Shown here in pieces: positions 4,072-41,830 of a DNA stretch of 64,000 nt. Position 1 is the stretch's first letter; every line of letters starts with the position of its first letter. The stretch is taken from NCBI GenBank assembly GCA_934101795.1, contig CAKORY010000002.1, positions 25,200-89,199 on the forward strand. The letters are read 5' to 3'. Both the position numbers and the translations under genes were made by a program. A model generated the notes under the pieces. The model saw nothing but the letters and a program-made list of their open reading frames with translations. It ran no database searches and was not told the DNA's origin. This stretch comes from an uncultured Bacilli bacterium. Lineage in GTDB: Bacteria > Bacillota_I > Bacilli_A > RF39 > UBA660.

Positions 4072-7000
4072 ATGAAGTTTTTAGATGATTATTTTAATTA
4101 TGAAATTGGAACGGAAATATCTGGTTTAACTAATGAGTTAAACGTTTTTTACATTGATAAATTAGGTGAAAAGTTTGATAGAAATATAATTGTTCTTACA
4201 AGTTCTTTGTTTGAAGCTAATAAAATATATGATAATTTAGTTAAAATGCATGATAATACTTTACTTTTTCCAATGGATGATTTTTTGTCATCTATGTTGG
4301 TGGCAAGTAGTCCCGAACTTAAGTATAAAAGACTTGAAACTTTAGATAAATTAAAAAGTGGTAATAAATATATTATAGTTACAAATTTAATGGGGTATTT
4401 AAAATATTTACCTAGTGCAAGTATTAAAAATTTTATTGATATTAAGAAAAATGATATTATTAAACGTGATGATTTAGTTAAAGAAATGGATGACTTAGGT
4501 TATCATCGTGAGTCTTTAGTAACAATGTCCGGAGAGTATGCTGTTCGTGGATTTATTTTAGACTTGTATCCGATTGATTATGATCATCCGATTAGAATTG
4601 AATTTGATGGTAATGTAATTGATAATATAAAATATTTTGATGAAAATACACAGATGTCAAATAATGATATTCATGATATTAAAATTAAGGCTATTGATGA
4701 AATTGTATCAAGTGATAAAAATTCGTTATTTGATTATGCAAATAATCCTTTGGTAGTTTATGTGGATAAATCTCAGATTGAAGCTTCATATTCTAAGTTA
4801 CTTGATGATATATCGGAATATAAAGAGTCAAATGAAATAACAAATGATTTAATGTATTCTTTAAATGATATTCATGATACTGATAGAATATATGTTAATT
4901 TATTTGCTAGTGAAGGTTTAAATTTGAACGCTCAAAGTATTATAAATTATAAGGAAAATTTTGAAAAATTATCTGCGGATTATGATGCTTGGATTAAAGC
5001 TGGAAAAATAGTATATTTTTATTTAAGTAAAGTAGAAGAAAAGAAAAAGTTACTTAAGATTATACCTAGTGCTCATATTGTAATGAAAGAATTATCTCAT
5101 GGTTTTATACTGGATAAGTATGTAGTTATTTCTGAAAATGATATTGAAGATGTAAAAGTAAGTAATGGAGTTTATAAAAATAATTTTCATGTTGGTAAAA
5201 GAATAAAGGATTTTAATCAACTCGAAAAAGGAGATTATGTTGTTCATATTTCTCATGGTATTGGTATTTATCAGGGAATTACCACGCTTTCTGTTCGCGG
5301 TGTTCAAAAAGATTTTTTAACAATATTTTATGAAGGATCTGATAAGATTTATGTGCCTGTTGAAAAAATAAATTTAATATATAAATATACTGGTAAAGAT
5401 GGAATAAAACCTAAACTTAATAAACTTGGAAGTACAAACTGGGAAAAAACTAAAAAATATATTTCTGAAAAAGTTAAAGATATTTCTAGAGAACTTATTA
5501 TTCTTTATAAAAAAAGATTAGAACTTAAGAAAAAACCTTATAAGGATTATCCTGAAGAAGATGTGTTTGCTAGTGAGTTTAAGTATGACCTTACGGTGGA
5601 TCAAGCTAAAGCAGTCGTAGAAATTAATAATGACTTGAAAAAAACTAATCCGATGGATAGGTTACTTTGTGGTGATGTAGGTTTTGGTAAAACTGAAGTT
5701 GCTATGAGAGCTATGTTTAAGGCTGTTTTAAATAATGAACAAGTACTTTATTTGTGTCCAACTACTATTCTTTCAAAACAACAATATAATGTTGCAAAAG
5801 AAAGATTTAAAAATTGGCCAATAGAAATAGCCCTTTTAAATAGACATGTAAGTGTTAAGAAAGCTAAAGAAATACTGGAAGATTTAAAGAATGGCAAAAT
5901 TGATATATTGTTTGGTACTCATAGGATACTTAGTGATGATATTGTTTGTAAAAATTTAGGCATGTTGGTAGTTGATGAAGAACAAAGATTTGGTGTTACT
6001 CATAAAGAAAAAATTAAAACCATGAAAAGTGATGTTAATGTTTTAACGCTTAGTGCCACTCCGATACCTAGAACATTAAAGATGGCTATGTCTGGTCTTA
6101 GAGATTTATCAGTTATCGATACACCACCAGTTAATAGATATCCAGTTCAGACTTATGTAGCAGTTGAAGATGATTTTTTAATTAAAGATGCTATTTATAA
6201 GGAATTAGCTAGAAAAGGACAAATATTTATTCTTTATAATAGAGTGGAAACAATTGAAAAATATATGAAACATATAAAAGATTTGATTCCAGATGCTAGA
6301 ATAAATTTTGCACATGGTAAAATGGAAAAAGATGAGCTTGATAGCATAATGACATCATTTATAAATAATGAATTTGATATTTTAATTTGTACAACAATAA
6401 TTGAAAGTGGAATTGATATTCCAAATGTTAATACTTTAATAATTCATGATGCAGATAATTTTGGCCTAAGTCAGCTTTATCAAATTCGTGGTCGTGTGGG
6501 TCGTAGTGATAAGGTTGCTTATGCTTATTTAATGTATGAAAAAAATAAAATGCTAAATGATATTGCTATTAAAAGGCTCAATACTATTAAGGAATTTACA
6601 GAACTTGGTAGTGGATATAGAATTGCTATGAGAGATTTAAGTTTACGGGGTGCAGGTGATGTATTTGGGGCTTCTCAGGCTGGTTTTGTGGATAGTGTTG
6701 GTATTTCCCTTTATATGAAAATGATTGAAGATGAAATTAAACGTCAACGCGGAGAGAAAGTGGAAGATGAAGATACTGAAACTCAAGCTTTAATTAATGT
6801 AAATACCCATATTAGTGATACATATGTAACTGATGAAGATATTAAAATTGAAATACATCAAAAGATTAATGAAATTGATTCTTATGAAAAATTATTAGAA
6901 ATAAAAGGTGAACTTGAAGATAGATTTGGTAAAGTTACTCAAGATATGCTAGTTTATATGTATGAAGAATGGTTTGAAAAACTTGCTAAAAAATATAATA

Positions 7001-36331: not shown

Positions 36332-37267
36332 GTGAAATCAAAAACATTTAAAACATTAGATGAACAAATTGACATACTAACTAAAAAAGGTTTAGTGGTT
36401 GAAGATTTTGAAACTGCTAAAACTGTTTTGCTTAGAGAAAATTACTTTTTCTTAAGTGGTTACCGTCATTTATTTATGAGACCCGATGATAACAAAACTT
36501 ATCTTGAAGGTACAACATTTAATGAATTGTATTCAATGTTTCTTTTTGATAGACAAATAAGAAATATAATTTTTAAAAATATTTTAATAGTAGAAAATAA
36601 TTTAAAAAGTATACTTGCTTATATTATGAGTAAAAATCATGGATTTAAAGAAAATAATTATTTAAATCCAAATAACTTTGTAAGAGATTCAAGAAGAAAT
36701 AGACAAATTAATGATTTAATCAGAAAAATGAAAAGACAAATAAGTGTTAATGGTAAACAACATAGTGCAACAGCTCATTACATCATTAATTATGGTTATA
36801 TTCCTTTGTGGGTTGTTGTTAAAGTTTTATCGTTTGGAATAGTTGGTGAACTTTATACAATACTACAGTATCAAGACCAAAAGGAAATTGCTGATGTTTT
36901 TGGGGTTAGTATTGATAGTATGGTTGATTATTTACCAATTGTTGCTAATTATCGTAATTTGTGTGCTCATGAAGATATTTGTTATATTAATAGAACTCAA
37001 AAAGCTATTGATGATACAAAATATCATAAACTATTGTATATTCCTAAGATAAATGAAGAATATATATATGGAAAGAATGATTTGTTTGCACTCATAATTA
37101 TTTTGAAACAATTATTAGATGAAGATAATTTTAACTTATTTATTAGTGAGATAAGTTATGAACTTGATAGGCTTTCAGGTAAATTAAAGGTAATTAAAGT
37201 AGAAAAAGTATTACATGAAATGGGATTTCCAAATAATTTTAAAGAAATAGTGAGGTTAGAAAAATGA
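36332..37267 (+). CDS. Abi_2 family abortive-infection protein (AbiD/AbiF-like, HEPN superfamily)
   Basis: N-terminus KTLDEQIDILTKKGLVVEDFETAKTVLLRENYFFLSGYRHLF matches Abi_2 signature (sIdEQIelLksRGL...A...L..inYYrLsgY); own extended -10 promoter (TGaTATAAT ~36298-36308); 4-nt overlap ATGA with htrA. Confidence 0.7.
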   Translation: MKSKTFKTLDEQIDILTKKGLVVEDFETAKTVLLRENYFFLSGYRHLFMRPDDNKTYLEGTTFNELYSMFLFDRQIRNIIFKNILIVENNLKSILAYIMSKNHGFKENNYLNPNNFVRDSRRNRQINDLIRKMKRQISVNGKQHSATAHYIINYGYIPLWVVVKVLSFGIVGELYTILQYQDQKEIADVFGVSIDSMVDYLPIVANYRNLCAHEDICYINRTQKAIDDTKYHKLLYIPKINEEYIYGKNDLFALIIILKQLLDEDNFNLFISEISYELDRLSGKLKVIKVEKVLHEMGFPNNFKEIVRLEK

Positions 37268-38376
37268 ATGAAGAACAAAACAAACAAAGAAAAAAAATAG
37301 TCTATTATTTAATTGCATTTTTTGTGGGATGCTTAGCTATGTATGCTGTTGTGTACTTTTTTCCAACAAGCATAACAGAAAGTATTACTAAACTAGAAAA
37401 AGATGTAACTGTTACTGATACTGGTATAGCTGATGCTGTTGAAAAGGTCTATGATGCGGTGGTGGTTGTATCTACTTATAAAGATCAAACTTTGATATCA
37501 TCGGGTACAGGATTTGTATATAAAAAGGAAGGTAATAAATATTATATTTTAACAAATCATCATGTTGTTGATGGTGGAAATAAAGTTACCGTTACATTTA
37601 CAAGTAAAGATGTTAAAGAAACTAAAATTGTTGGTTCAGATCAATATGCTGATATAGCTGTATTAAGTTTAGAAAGTTCAAAAGATTTAACTGTTGCTGA
37701 GCTTGGAAAGAGTGAAAATTTAAGAGTTGGTGATACAGCGTTTGCGGTAGGAGCACCACTTGATACTGCCTATTCTTGGACTGTTACAAGAGGCATAGTA
37801 TCAGGTAAAGAAAGAGAAGTGGCTGTTTCTCTTAATAATTCTAGAAGTAATGATTACGTTATGAAAGTATTACAAACTGATGCAGCAATTAATTCAGGTA
37901 ATAGTGGTGGACCTTTATGTAATAGTAATGGTGAAGTGATTGGTATTACATCACTTAAACTTGTAAGTAATGGTGTTGAAGGTATGGGATTTGCTATTCC
38001 AATTGAAAATGCTGTTACTAAAGCTGAACAAATAATAAGTGGTGATTCATATGAATATCCATATTTAGGTATTCAAATGCTAGATATTACAGATGCTTAT
38101 AGTTTATATCAATATTATGATTTAATTAAATCTTCTGGTCTTTCTAGTGGTGTTCTTGTTGCAAGTATAGAAAAAGGTAGTCCAGCTAGTAAAGCTAAAT
38201 TTGAAAAAAATGATATAATTACTAAAATAGATGGTAATGATATTAAGAATCTAGCTTATTTAAGATATTATTTATATCAACATAAAGTTGGAGATACTAT
38301 TAAAGTTACAGTTTATAGAGATGGAAAAACTAAAGAACTTAGTGTTACTTTAGGAACAAATAAGCAAACAACATAG
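37264..38376 (+). CDS. htrA: HtrA/DegP-family serine protease with PDZ domain
   Basis: N-terminal TM, trypsin-like catalytic triad motifs (HHVV, DIAVL, GNSGGPL), C-terminal PDZ. Confidence 0.9.
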   Translation: MNEEQNKQRKKIVYYLIAFFVGCLAMYAVVYFFPTSITESITKLEKDVTVTDTGIADAVEKVYDAVVVVSTYKDQTLISSGTGFVYKKEGNKYYILTNHHVVDGGNKVTVTFTSKDVKETKIVGSDQYADIAVLSLESSKDLTVAELGKSENLRVGDTAFAVGAPLDTAYSWTVTRGIVSGKEREVAVSLNNSRSNDYVMKVLQTDAAINSGNSGGPLCNSNGEVIGITSLKLVSNGVEGMGFAIPIENAVTKAEQIISGDSYEYPYLGIQMLDITDAYSLYQYYDLIKSSGLSSGVLVASIEKGSPASKAKFEKNDIITKIDGNDIKNLAYLRYYLYQHKVGDTIKVTVYRDGKTKELSVTLGTNKQTT

Positions 38377-39473: not shown

Positions 39474-39686
39474 TTAGTTCTTTTTTTCATTTATAATTTC
39501 GATAAGTTCACCTAGAGCACAGTTTAAATATTTACAAAATTCTTCAATGTACTTAAATGATATAGATGTTATATATCCATTTATTATTCTATTTAAATTT
39601 CTTGATGTTATGTTCATTTTTTGACATAGCTAATATTCTGTTTTACTATTTTTCTTAAGTAATTCAGTTGTATTTAATTTTATCAT
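39474..39686 (-). pseudogene. XRE-family HTH regulator interrupted by in-frame TAG (amber) at codon 19
   Basis: AGGGAG RBS then MIKLNTTELLKKNSKTEY-TAG-LCQKMNITSRNLNRIINGYITSISFKYIEEFCKYLNCALGELIEIINEKKN; full-length reading is a typical Cro/C1-type HTH; divergent from Hint-domain gene. Confidence 0.5.
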
Positions 39687-39794
39687 AGTATATTCTCCCT
39701 ATAACTTAATTTATCTAATAAGAAAAGTATAAATATGATACTTGTATTACTCCTATTTTGGGGTTATAATTATAATCAAGATAGGAGTCTGTAT

Positions 39795-41252
39795 ATGAAA
39801 AAGAAATTATTTTTAATTTTTAGTTTAGTCATTGTACTTTGTGTTGGAATATTAATTTGTATATTAAAAAATTCGAATGATGTGTATGAAGAAAGCACAA
39901 TTAAAAGCTTTAAAAAAAATGAAAATATGCTTTCTATGATGCTTGAAACGAAACCTGAGAGTGGAAATTATGAAATGACCATCAGAGATAGTTGGCCAAC
40001 AAGTGGATATAAATTTAATTCAATATTATCTAAATGTGAAAATGGCGGAGAAATTAGCTGGGATGATGAAAATAAAAGAGTTTTGATGTCTGGTAATGTT
40101 TCAGATAAATGTTATGTGTATTTTGATTTAATTGTTAAGACTCAAATAAACATAAATGATACTTTATTGGAAAAGTTAAGTGAGAAAAGTTCATATGATT
40201 TTGTGAAAAGGTGTTGGTCTTCTGATTCACCACGTAATTTAACTATTACTATTGATAAAAATTATAAAGTTAATTATTTTGATTTGTTTGAATATATTAA
40301 CACTAATTATTCAGATACTATTTCATATGATTTTAATACTTATTTTTTTACTATGAATTCAATTAATTTACCTGATAGTTATTGTGAAGTTGCAGATACA
40401 TTATGTCTTTCTAGTAATATATCTGATCTGAATTTTACTACTAAATATTATTATGCACCAGATTCCAGTAGTTCAGGTTCGGGAATCGAATTAAATCCTG
40501 ACTCTGATTACCTTTCTAATATGTTTTATGATGGTCAAAATTTAATTGTGAATGGTGCTTCTGCAGCACATGCATTTGCTATACAATTTATTGAAGAGGG
40601 AAAAACTCCAAGTGATTGGTATAAAATATTTTTATGTTCATATTGTTTATCAGAAAATACCGAGGTGTATGTTTATGACAAAAAGAAAAAGAAGTTTAAA
40701 AAGAAGAAAATTAGTGAAGTTGATTATGATGATGAAATATTATGTTGGGACTTTGATAATGGTGAATTTGCTATAGCTAAACCTATTTGGATTAAAAAGT
40801 GTGAACAAACAAATAAATATAACTTACTTAAATTTAGTGATGGAAGTAGTTTAGAAACAATTAATCAACACAGAATATTTAATGTAGAAAAAGGTATGTT
40901 TACTTATCCAATGAGTGATGATACACCGATTGGAACAACAACATTTAATAGTAAAGGCGAATATGTTAAATTGGTAAGTAAAGAAGTAATTGAAAAACCA
41001 ATAGATTATTATAATGTAATGACAGAATATCATATTAATTTATTTGCAAATGATATACTTACATCCTGTAGATTAAGTAATATGTATAAGGTTAAGAATA
41101 TGAAATATGAATATAATAACAAAAGAAATAATGAATATGATTTATCTAAATATGATGAAAAGTTAGTAAACGGACTTAGATTAAGAGAGCAAGATATAGA
41201 AGAAAGTAAATTGAAAACTTATGTTGATAATATGCTTAGATTAATGAAATAA
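39795..41252 (+). CDS. Membrane-anchored extracytoplasmic protein with C-terminal Hint/bacterial-intein-like (BIL) autoprocessing domain and 60-aa tail
   Basis: TAGGAG RBS, MKKKLFLIFSLVIVLCVGILICIL TM anchor; Ser-rich linker SSSSGSG; Hint block A CLSENTEVYVYD (Cys at nt 40644), block B-like LETINQHRIF, C-terminal block NLFANDILTSC (nt ~41040-41069); lysine tract inside Hint. Confidence 0.55.
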   Translation: MKKKLFLIFSLVIVLCVGILICILKNSNDVYEESTIKSFKKNENMLSMMLETKPESGNYEMTIRDSWPTSGYKFNSILSKCENGGEISWDDENKRVLMSGNVSDKCYVYFDLIVKTQININDTLLEKLSEKSSYDFVKRCWSSDSPRNLTITIDKNYKVNYFDLFEYINTNYSDTISYDFNTYFFTMNSINLPDSYCEVADTLCLSSNISDLNFTTKYYYAPDSSSSGSGIELNPDSDYLSNMFYDGQNLIVNGASAAHAFAIQFIEEGKTPSDWYKIFLCSYCLSENTEVYVYDKKKKKFKKKKISEVDYDDEILCWDFDNGEFAIAKPIWIKKCEQTNKYNLLKFSDGSSLETINQHRIFNVEKGMFTYPMSDDTPIGTTTFNSKGEYVKLVSKEVIEKPIDYYNVMTEYHINLFANDILTSCRLSNMYKVKNMKYEYNNKRNNEYDLSKYDEKLVNGLRLREQDIEESKLKTYVDNMLRLMK

Positions 41253-41266
41253 TAAAACCAGCAAGT

Positions 41267-41830
41267 TTAAATGCTTGCTGGTTTTAGTCTTATTCTTGCT
41301 TTACCTAGTTCTTCGTCAGGTGTTTTTAATGTGTAATCCAAATGTGCATCATTTAATGCATAGCTAAATCTGTTTTTAAGTACATTTACCATGTTTGTGT
41401 ATACTTGAATAGCATTTTCATAACGATTTTGCTTAATTAAATCATAGCATGGAAGTATGTAATTGTGTGCTAAAATAATGGAATCAATTATTGGGCAATT
41501 TGCTAATTCATGACTTATTACGGGCCCAATAATGTCATATTCTTGAAGTAATGCTCTTCCTTCTTTTGTTTTCTTTAAATAATTTTCTCTGATAAATCTT
41601 AATGTTTGTAATACCTCGCAATTGTCTTCGTATCCAAGAATTTCACATACTATTGTAGTTATAAAACAACCAGATGGTGTGTATCCTCCTTCAAGTTTTT
41701 TTACGTAGCTATAGCATGCTTTTTCACTTGCATCTTTATATTTGCAAGTTTCTGTACAGTAACACCTATCTCCCCAATATTCTTTTTGATTTTTGTCAAA
41801 ATGTGCGCAATTTCCGCAGTAATCTGCCAT
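41267..41830 (-). CDS. Cys-rich hypothetical protein (zinc-ribbon-like N-terminus, CFITTIVC motif)
   Basis: 187 aa; nine Cys in first 71 aa (CGNCAHFD...CYCTETC...C...GCFITTIVCEILGYEDNC); convergent with Hint gene; own promoter region shared divergently with marR. Confidence 0.4.
   Translation of the reverse strand: MADYCGNCAHFDKNQKEYWGDRCYCTETCKYKDASEKACYSYVKKLEGGYTPSGCFITTIVCEILGYEDNCEVLQTLRFIRENYLKKTKEGRALLQEYDIIGPVISHELANCPIIDSIILAHNYILPCYDLIKQNRYENAIQVYTNMVNVLKNRFSYALNDAHLDYTLKTPDEELGKARIRLKPASI

Follow-up and report, generated by a model that had tools for sequence, protein, structure and literature searches.

The surface-protein gene and its Hint-fold domain

The window analyzed here, a stretch of 64,000 nucleotides from an uncultured Bacilli bacterium (GenBank assembly GCA_934101795.1, contig CAKORY010000002.1, positions 25,200 to 89,199), contains a gene for a putative surface protein precursor in which a membrane-anchored N-terminal part, the passenger, is followed by a C-terminal Hint-fold domain and a 60-residue extension. 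Its neighbors are an XRE regulator gene interrupted by an amber (TAG) codon, a convergent open reading frame (ORF) for a Cys-rich protein of 187 amino acids (aa), a MarR gene, and the genes for two ABC exporters; an earlier reading of the same DNA (the original prediction) had described this neighborhood correctly. The ORF list gives the frame as 39735..41252 (505 aa); the ATG at 39795, also chosen originally, was taken as the likely start of a 485-aa protein because AGGAG lies 7 nucleotides upstream and homologues begin with MKK at the equivalent Met. One homologue (P0001) is 99% identical to the window protein, and there are many more. The proposed N-terminal transmembrane anchor reappeared in the full-length AlphaFold2 (AF2) model as a hydrophobic helix; the protein begins MKKK, neither a lipobox nor an AXA site was seen on reading the sequence, and the helix is predicted to be a signal anchor, probably with an N-in/C-out topology.

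Table 1. Features of the surface-protein gene, in window coordinates (pLDDT, predicted local distance difference test)
Feature	Position	Strand	Basis or remark
Shine-Dalgarno-like AGGAG	39783..39787	+	7 nt before ATG 39795, read from sequence
Whole gene, predicted precursor of a surface protein, 485 aa (passenger and Hint-tail module), including stop	39795..41252	+
N-terminal hydrophobic helix, aa 2-25	39798..39869	+	AF2 full-length model
Conserved N-terminal beta domain of passenger, aa 45-112 (LSMMLET...CENGG...CYVYFD)	39927..40130	+	AF2 strands 46-112, pLDDT ~80
Strain-variable passenger middle, aa 113-261	40131..40577	+	No DNA homology to L001 and L083 alleles; flanks 91-95% identical
Conserved passenger end, aa 262-283 (AIQFIEEGKTPSDWYKIFLCSY), up to predicted scissile bond Tyr283-Cys284	40578..40643	+	L001 homology resumes at 40578; motif in L083
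Hint-fold domain, aa 284-425 (Cys284 40644-40646; His359 40869-40871)	40644..41069	+
Lys-rich KKKKKFKKKK, aa 296-305, first beta-hairpin of Hint fold	40680..40709	+	Modeled strands 290-295 and 300-305
Block F/G-like YYN407...H413.N415.F...ILT423-S424-C425 in Hint-fold domain	within 40644..41069	+
60-aa extension, aa 426-485: predicted hairpin 432-439, helices 455-460 and 470-482	41070..41249	+	Stop at 41250
Bidirectional terminator hairpin between gene and convergent Cys-rich ORF	41253..41286	.

Searches with the window protein as a single sequence returned nothing from Pfam, NCBIfam, PHROG, or PDB sequences. An alignment of 33 diverse C-terminal regions (A1) was used as input for an AlphaFold2 model of aa 277-485, which had a mean pLDDT of 92.6 and a predicted template modeling score (pTM) of 0.87. 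When this model was compared with the PDB by Foldseek, the matches were almost exclusively Hint domains: the top match was BIL2, a bacterial intein-like (BIL) domain of the Tetrahymena BUBL1 locus (E value, 7e-10), and further matches were to a Clostridium thermocellum BIL domain, many inteins, and the hedgehog autoprocessing domain. On the strength of this model, we conclude with high confidence that the C-terminal region of the window protein is a Hint-fold domain, as originally proposed.

Profile signals below threshold agreed with this; the single sequence gave none, but Hint and intein signals of this kind were present in some family members. Among the 33 aligned members, sub-threshold Pfam matches were to Hint (PF01079; 11 members, best E value 1.3e-4), Intein_splicing (6), Hom_end_hint (5), Hint_2 (PF13403; 4, E values of at least 0.032), and PT-HINT (3), and the NCBIfam model intein_Nterm (TIGR01445) matched 10 members weakly; none of these Hint and intein matches reached its curated cutoff. 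In the case of P0075, the PF01079 match scored 19.4 bits against a cutoff of 29.7 and covered profile positions 10-91 alone.

Conservation was assessed in 311 distinct family sequences, with per-site counts over 305 to 307 of them. Cys284 (TGT, 40644-40646), the block-A Cys of the original prediction, and His359 in its block-B motif LETINQHRIF were both present in 305/305 sequences, and Thr355 was conserved in 282/305. N407, N415, T423, and S424 were invariant or nearly so, and H413 was conserved in 296. The block-B Thr lies at position -4 from His359 (T-x-x-x-H), not at -3. In profile alignments (hhalign), Cys284 and His359 were paired with Cys1 and the block-B His of the Npu DnaE intein (E value, 0.0095) and, over the N-terminal half and without significance (E value, 0.12), with C258 and H329 of Drosophila hedgehog, whose sequence was checked against 6td6 and 1at0. 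The residue preceding Cys284 is not conserved across homologues. Given that Cys284 and His359 are invariant, self-cleavage before Cys284 is the likely chemistry of this domain.

The Hint fold's C-terminal end requires a correction. The motif NDILTS-C is present as described, but a single Cys follows NDILTS, not two: in the model the last Hint strand is ILTS (aa 421-424), which is followed by Cys425 (TGT, 41067-41069). Thr-Ser occupies positions 423-424 in 305/307 sequences, whereas position 425 varies (Cys in 239 of 307, Ser in 20, Asn in 12, Met in 9, Leu in 8, and Arg in 5). Comparison with the ...NGFIASN-C junction of Npu DnaE, together with the position of the last strand, suggests that Cys425 corresponds to the terminal Asn of inteins and not to the +1 residue; the next residue is a near-invariant Arg (R426, in 296 sequences), which is not a nucleophile. 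The idea that Cys425 acts as a +1 nucleophile is therefore not supported, and Asn-driven C-terminal cleavage and splicing are likewise unsupported. Conservation of the three diagnostic positions is accordingly split: the Cys and His are absolute, but the terminal residue is replaceable.

The Lys-rich stretch does lie inside the Hint fold, as had been noted. It contains a five-residue insertion present in 72 of 120 close homologues and missing in the other 48, while K304 is invariant; it is thus a subfamily-specific lengthening of the first beta-hairpin. More distant family members have xDGxxK at this position, which resembles intein block A.

The Hint-tail module, its passengers, and its alleles

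The 60-residue extension, or tail, is present in 331 of the 338 module-bearing proteins, and BLAST and hidden Markov model (HMM) coordinates show that homologues share aa ~284-485 as one block. Its residues R426, N429, Y431, R462, and E465 are about as invariant as the catalytic ones, and the ratio of nonsynonymous to synonymous substitution rates (dN/dS) is 0.16-0.57 in the tail and 0.12-0.16 in the Hint domain, which indicates purifying selection. In the model the tail (pLDDT, ~89-95) and the Hint domain make up a single unit, and the pTM suggests that the position of the tail relative to that domain is fixed. From these data, the strongly charged tail is neither variable cargo nor the released ~7-kDa peptide that had been envisaged. 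Sequence and model together suggest that aa 284-485 (202 residues) form one functional unit, a Hint autoprocessing domain with a 60-residue extension, mounted on a membrane-anchored surface protein precursor. A borderline match of the family profile to PDB entry 8wj5, "Uncharacterized protein YdcD" (E value, 0.031; aa ~411-456, window ~41025-41162), aligns FFNDILYSVRLKNISKLENMEF with LFANDILTSCRLSNMYKVKNMKY; this may have arisen by chance or may reflect a vestige of the same Hint end and tail start.

This 200-aa module family has no Pfam or NCBIfam model, and no description of it was found in the literature searched; in that sense the original suggestion of possible novelty is supported. When 1.84 billion cluster representatives were searched exhaustively with an HMM, 790 matched at E values of ≤1e-30 and 1568 at ≤1e-10; a word-indexed search gave 2260. 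Genome matches included "uncultured Tenericutes bacterium UMGS1410" at 98%, which is the window's own species or a close relative, Firmicutes CAG:460, and further Bacilli and Clostridia. Metagenome-assembled genomes (MAGs) matching at 43-55% identity over the best aligned segment were labeled Alphaproteobacteria, Gastranaerophilaceae, Burkholderiales, Neisseriaceae, and others. In IMG/VR, 50 loci carried the module, some of them in two giant-virus MAGs and on contigs 350-570 kb long, and the top match among predicted viral structures was a Gaeavirus protein (48% identity, TM score of 0.89 over the whole module) that is named "Hedgehog/Intein (Hint) domain-containing protein" in UniProt. None of 50,697 GenBank phage records was matched by the module in a tblastn search, which means that the viral relatives are contigs of uncultivated origin, in part from giant viruses. 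Modules cluster by host lineage, so that the family looks old and constrained, and recent horizontal spread was dropped as an explanation for its distribution.

The module lies within 25 residues of the C terminus in 309 of 331 tail-bearing members, and the N-terminal parts ahead of it are unrelated. Bacterial passengers elsewhere have prepilin-type N termini, SipW-type signal peptides, and Ig-like, Big_2, Flg_new, Kelch, and EGF domains, and those on viral contigs are collagen-like, FN3-like, PT-linker, or tail-fiber-like proteins of up to 1900 aa. A prepilin methylation motif occurs in some relatives (GFTLTE or GRSMVEMLGVL-type N termini in L006, L007, and L015-L028), and N_methyl (PF07963) was matched at threshold in P0037 (21.3 versus 21.2 bits); the window protein has a plain signal anchor, not a prepilin N terminus. 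In a rough count, 32 N termini were prepilin-like, 82 were otherwise hydrophobic, and 198 had no such segment, some of them with signal peptides below threshold. To judge from these sequences, the passengers that can be classified would end up outside the cell or on virions. Two apparently stand-alone modules (L012 1230-3450 and L078 5326-6555) were set aside, as each has a pilin-like or fiber-like ORF just upstream or in another frame; both are probably frameshifted or split genes.

A search with the window's own passenger (aa 1-277) gave 1855 matches; over its first ~110 residues this passenger is a member of a large paralogous family. Among the matches listed, 107 were new relative to the module homologue search, and none of the 107 carries a Hint module. 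This very large family, of surface proteins of 400-430 aa in related gut bacteria, is headed by the beta domain seen in this passenger (LSMMLET..SGNYE..WP..GY.FN..LSKCENGG.LSWD...SDKCYVYFD). Some of these proteins carry DUF6273 (PF19789); the beta domain itself has no Pfam model.

A syntenic contig (L083; ENA ERZ15610057 NODE_116, the contig behind P0260) has flanks that are 91-93% identical to the window at the DNA level. Upstream it has the same amidase, Abi_2, HtrA, RDD, and tRNA-editing genes, and downstream the same Cys-rich ORF, MarR, and ABC genes; however, its orthologue (5001-5957) encodes a protein of 318 aa without the Hint-tail module, and a module-less orthologue is also present at L084. 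The L083 protein reads ...SDWYVLNFWFDQD / ...FPGKIASDWYVLNFWFDQD up to its stop, where the window protein has ...EEGKTPSDWYKIFLCSY (...SDWYKIFLCSY) followed directly by Cys284. It thus stops two residues past the predicted scissile bond, and the gene runs directly into the shared terminator. Apart from a 7-bp AGATTAA shared near the stop codons, the junction has no repeats or target-site signature. There is thus a natural protein equivalent to what cleavage is predicted to yield, which fits a role for the passenger as the mature product; at this locus the module is an optional addition. When an alphaproteobacterial pilin-like passenger was used to look for another such allele pair, the search gave two relatives, both with the module.

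In a third allele (L001; 556 aa) a different middle region precedes the same module, and DNA identity is 95.5% from nucleotide 40578 onward. The window, L083, and L001 thus represent a three-way polymorphism at one locus, within a variable islet (39507-41237) that comprises the XRE gene and the surface-protein gene. The regulator belongs to this islet, since its position in L083 is occupied by another XRE, which is intact and 79 aa long.

On viral contigs the module has a recurrent companion. A HAD_SAK_2 protein (PF18143; E values, 1e-15 to 1e-19) of ~150-170 aa is encoded directly downstream of the module gene at 25 of 82 loci, 24 of them viral and the other being L013 (L013, L033, L034, L045-L048, L051-L056, L060, L062, L063, L065-L071, L081, and L082), and the stop of the module gene and the start of the HAD_SAK_2 gene often overlap. 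Four proteins (L038 5347-7038, P0237, P0243, and P0255) have it fused behind the tail. Most copies have FLDHxGV in place of the usual DxDG motif. Bacterial loci have no conserved downstream gene, and the window contains no HAD_SAK_2 homologue. Pfam searches of the neighbors at viral loci were mostly empty, and the viruses could not be typed from their flanks. The association suggests a viral partner, either for the Hint-tail unit once released or for its chemistry.

Relation to known Hint systems and possible mechanism

Hint domains are known in four settings, namely, inteins, hedgehog Hog domains, and two bacterial intein-like types; the module is a fifth, well-delimited clade. It is a member of the Hint superfamily, hedgehog-like or BIL-like, that matches no known group in full. 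The Hog domain consists of a Hint domain together with a sterol or adduct recognition region (SRR/ARR) (PMC2362128, PMC7765530). Like the module, it lies C-terminally behind an exported passenger, has the block-B His, lacks the terminal Asn and hence does not splice, and carries a conserved extension of ~60 aa after the Hint fold; by analogy, the tail would belong to the module as the SRR/ARR, which transfer requires, belongs to Hog. By eye, though without a significant alignment, Ser-Cys closes the last strand in both (ILTSC in the module, AASC in Drosophila hedgehog). However, PF01079 stays under threshold, the tail is charged rather than hydrophobic and is not detectably related to the SRR (hhalign E value, 0.44 over 11 columns, not significant), the residue before the Cys is not Gly, and the hosts are bacteria and viruses, not eukaryotes. 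Neither the N-terminal half (hhalign E value, 0.12) nor the tail (0.44) is significantly similar to hedgehog, so that the hedgehog-like interpretation depends on architecture and not on tail homology. The nonsignificant tail alignment sets the last tail helix, KLKTYVDNMLR (aa 472-482, window ~41208-41240), against GIHWYANALYK of the SRR.

BIL domains, like the module, sit in variable, nonconserved secreted or surface proteins, and those of type A have a conserved C-terminal His-Asn (PMC7765530). The module has no His-Asn, the nearly universal Thr-Ser standing there instead; it resembles type B in lacking the intein C-terminal motif, but its match to Hint_2 is weak (4/33), as is that to PT-HINT (3/33). 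Furthermore, BIL domains are usually internal and flanked on both sides, whereas the module is terminal with an extension of its own, and sequence conservation within its family is much higher than is usual among BILs. It shares with inteins Cys1, the block-B His, a block A-like CLxxxT, block F/G-like motifs, and the weak TIGR01445 match; however, it has no C-extein, terminal Asn, +1 nucleophile, or homing endonuclease, and it is not inserted in a conserved host protein but terminal in almost all members, with its own conserved tail after the Hint fold. It differs from polymorphic toxins with a pretoxin HINT domain (PF07591) in its constant tail, its scarce PT-HINT matches, and the absence of a conserved downstream gene at bacterial loci.

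The C-terminal intramolecular chaperones of phage tail spikes and fibers (Peptidase_S74 type) are conserved C-terminal units that are self-cleaved off after their job is done. The resemblance of the module to these units is one of functional analogy alone, since a Cys thioester stands against a Ser-Lys dyad, the folds differ, and no match in sequence or structure was found.

With hedgehog, inteins, and BIL domains as models, we consider it probable, though far from certain, that the Hint-tail unit cleaves itself off at Tyr283-Cys284, that water resolves the thioester, and that the passenger is retained while a 23-kDa unit is released. The protein would first be exported by means of its N-terminal anchor. 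An N-to-S acyl shift, assisted by His359, would then move the Tyr283-Cys284 peptide bond onto the thiol of Cys284, and the resulting thioester would be resolved, most simply by water. The passenger (aa ~1-283) would stay on the cell as the mature protein, and the Hint-tail unit of ~23 kDa would come off. Neither splicing nor release of the tail is expected, since there is no terminal Asn and no C-extein. We infer the occurrence of cleavage, its site, and the identity of the acceptor; the L083 allele, which ends at the junction, provides indirect support for the predicted acyl shift and cleavage.

Four observations weigh against this explanation. A single allele pair that differs in the module was found; the HAD_SAK_2 association, both adjacent and fused, is not accounted for; the conserved block-B Thr stands at -4 instead of -3 relative to the His; and conservation exceeds the needs of self-cleavage, as it includes WDFD (318-321), HRIFNxExGxFTYPMTDDTPIGTTTFN (359-385), and the tail residues. 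The last of these points to a further function for which plain hydrolysis does not account.

The main rival is a transfer like that of hedgehog or BIL2, which we regard as unlikely but which would account for the extra conservation and the tail. The thioester at Cys284 would be attacked by a specific nucleophile, placed by the tail and the Hint surface; the acceptor could be the hydroxyl of a lipid or glycan or an amine of a protein or peptidoglycan, and the C terminus of the passenger would become covalently attached without ATP or sortase. A Hint domain with a conserved ~60-aa extension and no terminal Asn is the Hog architecture (PMC2362128, PMC7765530), hedgehog Hint is the commonest sub-threshold Pfam match, and BIL2, the top structural match, forms an isopeptide bond to a Lys of target proteins at the ciliate BUBL locus (PMC8616854). 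The invariant noncatalytic residues of the Hint domain and tail suggest a conserved ligand, every classifiable passenger is extracellular or on the virion surface, and, speculatively, the HAD-type enzyme fused or adjacent on viral contigs could make or process the acceptor. However, no acceptor was identified, the charged tail is unlike a hydrophobic sterol recognition region and has no significant similarity to that of hedgehog, the residue before Cys284 is not conserved, and the natural module-less allele means that an adduct is not essential for the passenger.

A bolder form of this proposal, which we put forward tentatively and think rather unlikely, is that the Hint-tail unit corresponds, in prokaryotes and viruses, to Hog or to the ciliate BIL2 and is an ATP- and sortase-independent conjugation device acting through the Cys284 thioester. 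It is similarly doubtful, although conceivable, that the C terminus of a pilin, adhesin, or virion fiber is joined to a lipid, glycan, or amine on the cell wall or target surface, with the tail and Hint surface selecting the acceptor and the viral HAD acting on it. If the thioester is indeed passed to an acceptor, the module would add a new route to covalent surface attachment and would give protein engineering a compact tool. It could also provide a handle on the maturation of pilin-like proteins, adhesins, and virus fibers. The module has a hedgehog-like architecture, is unusually strongly conserved, and occurs across several bacterial phyla and in viruses, giant viruses among them; it may bear on the origin of the eukaryotic Hog domain. 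The natural allele pair in near-identical gut strains, one allele having the module and the other lacking it, opens the question to direct test.

It is improbable that the module is a selfish or neutral hitchhiker, that is, a mobile Hint-tail cassette (with the HAD gene in viruses) that settles at the 3' ends of genes and is tolerated as self-cutting, with no benefit to the host. A polymorphism for presence or absence exactly at the junction in syntenic strains, the attachment of the same module to unrelated passengers across several phyla as well as on viral contigs, and the cassette-like pairing with a downstream gene whose start overlaps the stop would all agree with such an origin. However, modules cluster by host lineage with no mixing, and purifying selection is strong across 200 aa, including noncatalytic sites, whereas inteins keep short blocks alone. 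Furthermore, no endonuclease or recombinase is associated with the module; the HAD fold is not known to have nuclease members, and the junction carries no repeats or target-site signature beyond the 7-bp AGATTAA.

There is very little likelihood that the module stays uncleaved and, merely using the Hint fold, serves as a stable domain at the distal tip of pili or fibers for ligand binding or adhesion. Its surface-like motifs are very highly conserved, and a C-terminal position is usually the distal end in fibers; however, the fully conserved first-position Cys and block-B His are the signature of acyl-shift chemistry, a Hint-less allele exists, and a 23-kDa domain on the C terminus of a type IV pilin-like subunit is hard to fit into a pilus.

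The scheme contained in the original prediction or its polymorphic-toxin version, in which an intein-like or BIL type A-like domain with Cys425 as the +1 nucleophile frees the 60-aa tail as a peptide or mini-toxin with a downstream immunity gene, is the least credible of all: the frequent Cys after the last Hint strand, the gene directly downstream on viral contigs, and the few weak PT-HINT matches would suit it, but a terminal Asn or His-Asn is lacking, Cys425 can be replaced by Ser, Asn, Met, Leu, or Arg and is followed by a conserved Arg, the tail is modeled as packed with the Hint domain and is fused to HAD in four proteins, the window holds no candidate immunity gene (the next gene is convergent and is also found at the module-less locus), and a constant tail behind variable N-terminal parts is the reverse of polymorphic toxins; the original prediction had itself pointed out that, in contrast to the toxin released in such systems, a tail of 60 aa is all that follows here.

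Neighboring genes

The terminator search found 2 terminator-like sites where 0.2 were expected, and the hairpin behind the surface-protein gene is kept in L001 and L083. The convergent Cys-rich ORF beyond it (41267-41830, minus strand) encodes CGNC...C.C..C...C followed by CFITT.VCE and has no Pfam match. It is syntenic whether or not the neighboring gene has a Hint module and so is probably unrelated to it; as a candidate partner of the module it was dropped on both counts. The XRE/HTH_26 gene (39474-39686, minus strand) has an in-frame TAG (MIKLNTTELLKKNSKTEY, stop, LCQKMNITSR...) and is probably a pseudogene or starts at an internal Met. Farther upstream (36332-38376), the stop of an Abi_2 (abortive-infection-like) gene overlaps the start of the gene for an HtrA-type protease, and both genes are kept in the syntenic strains.

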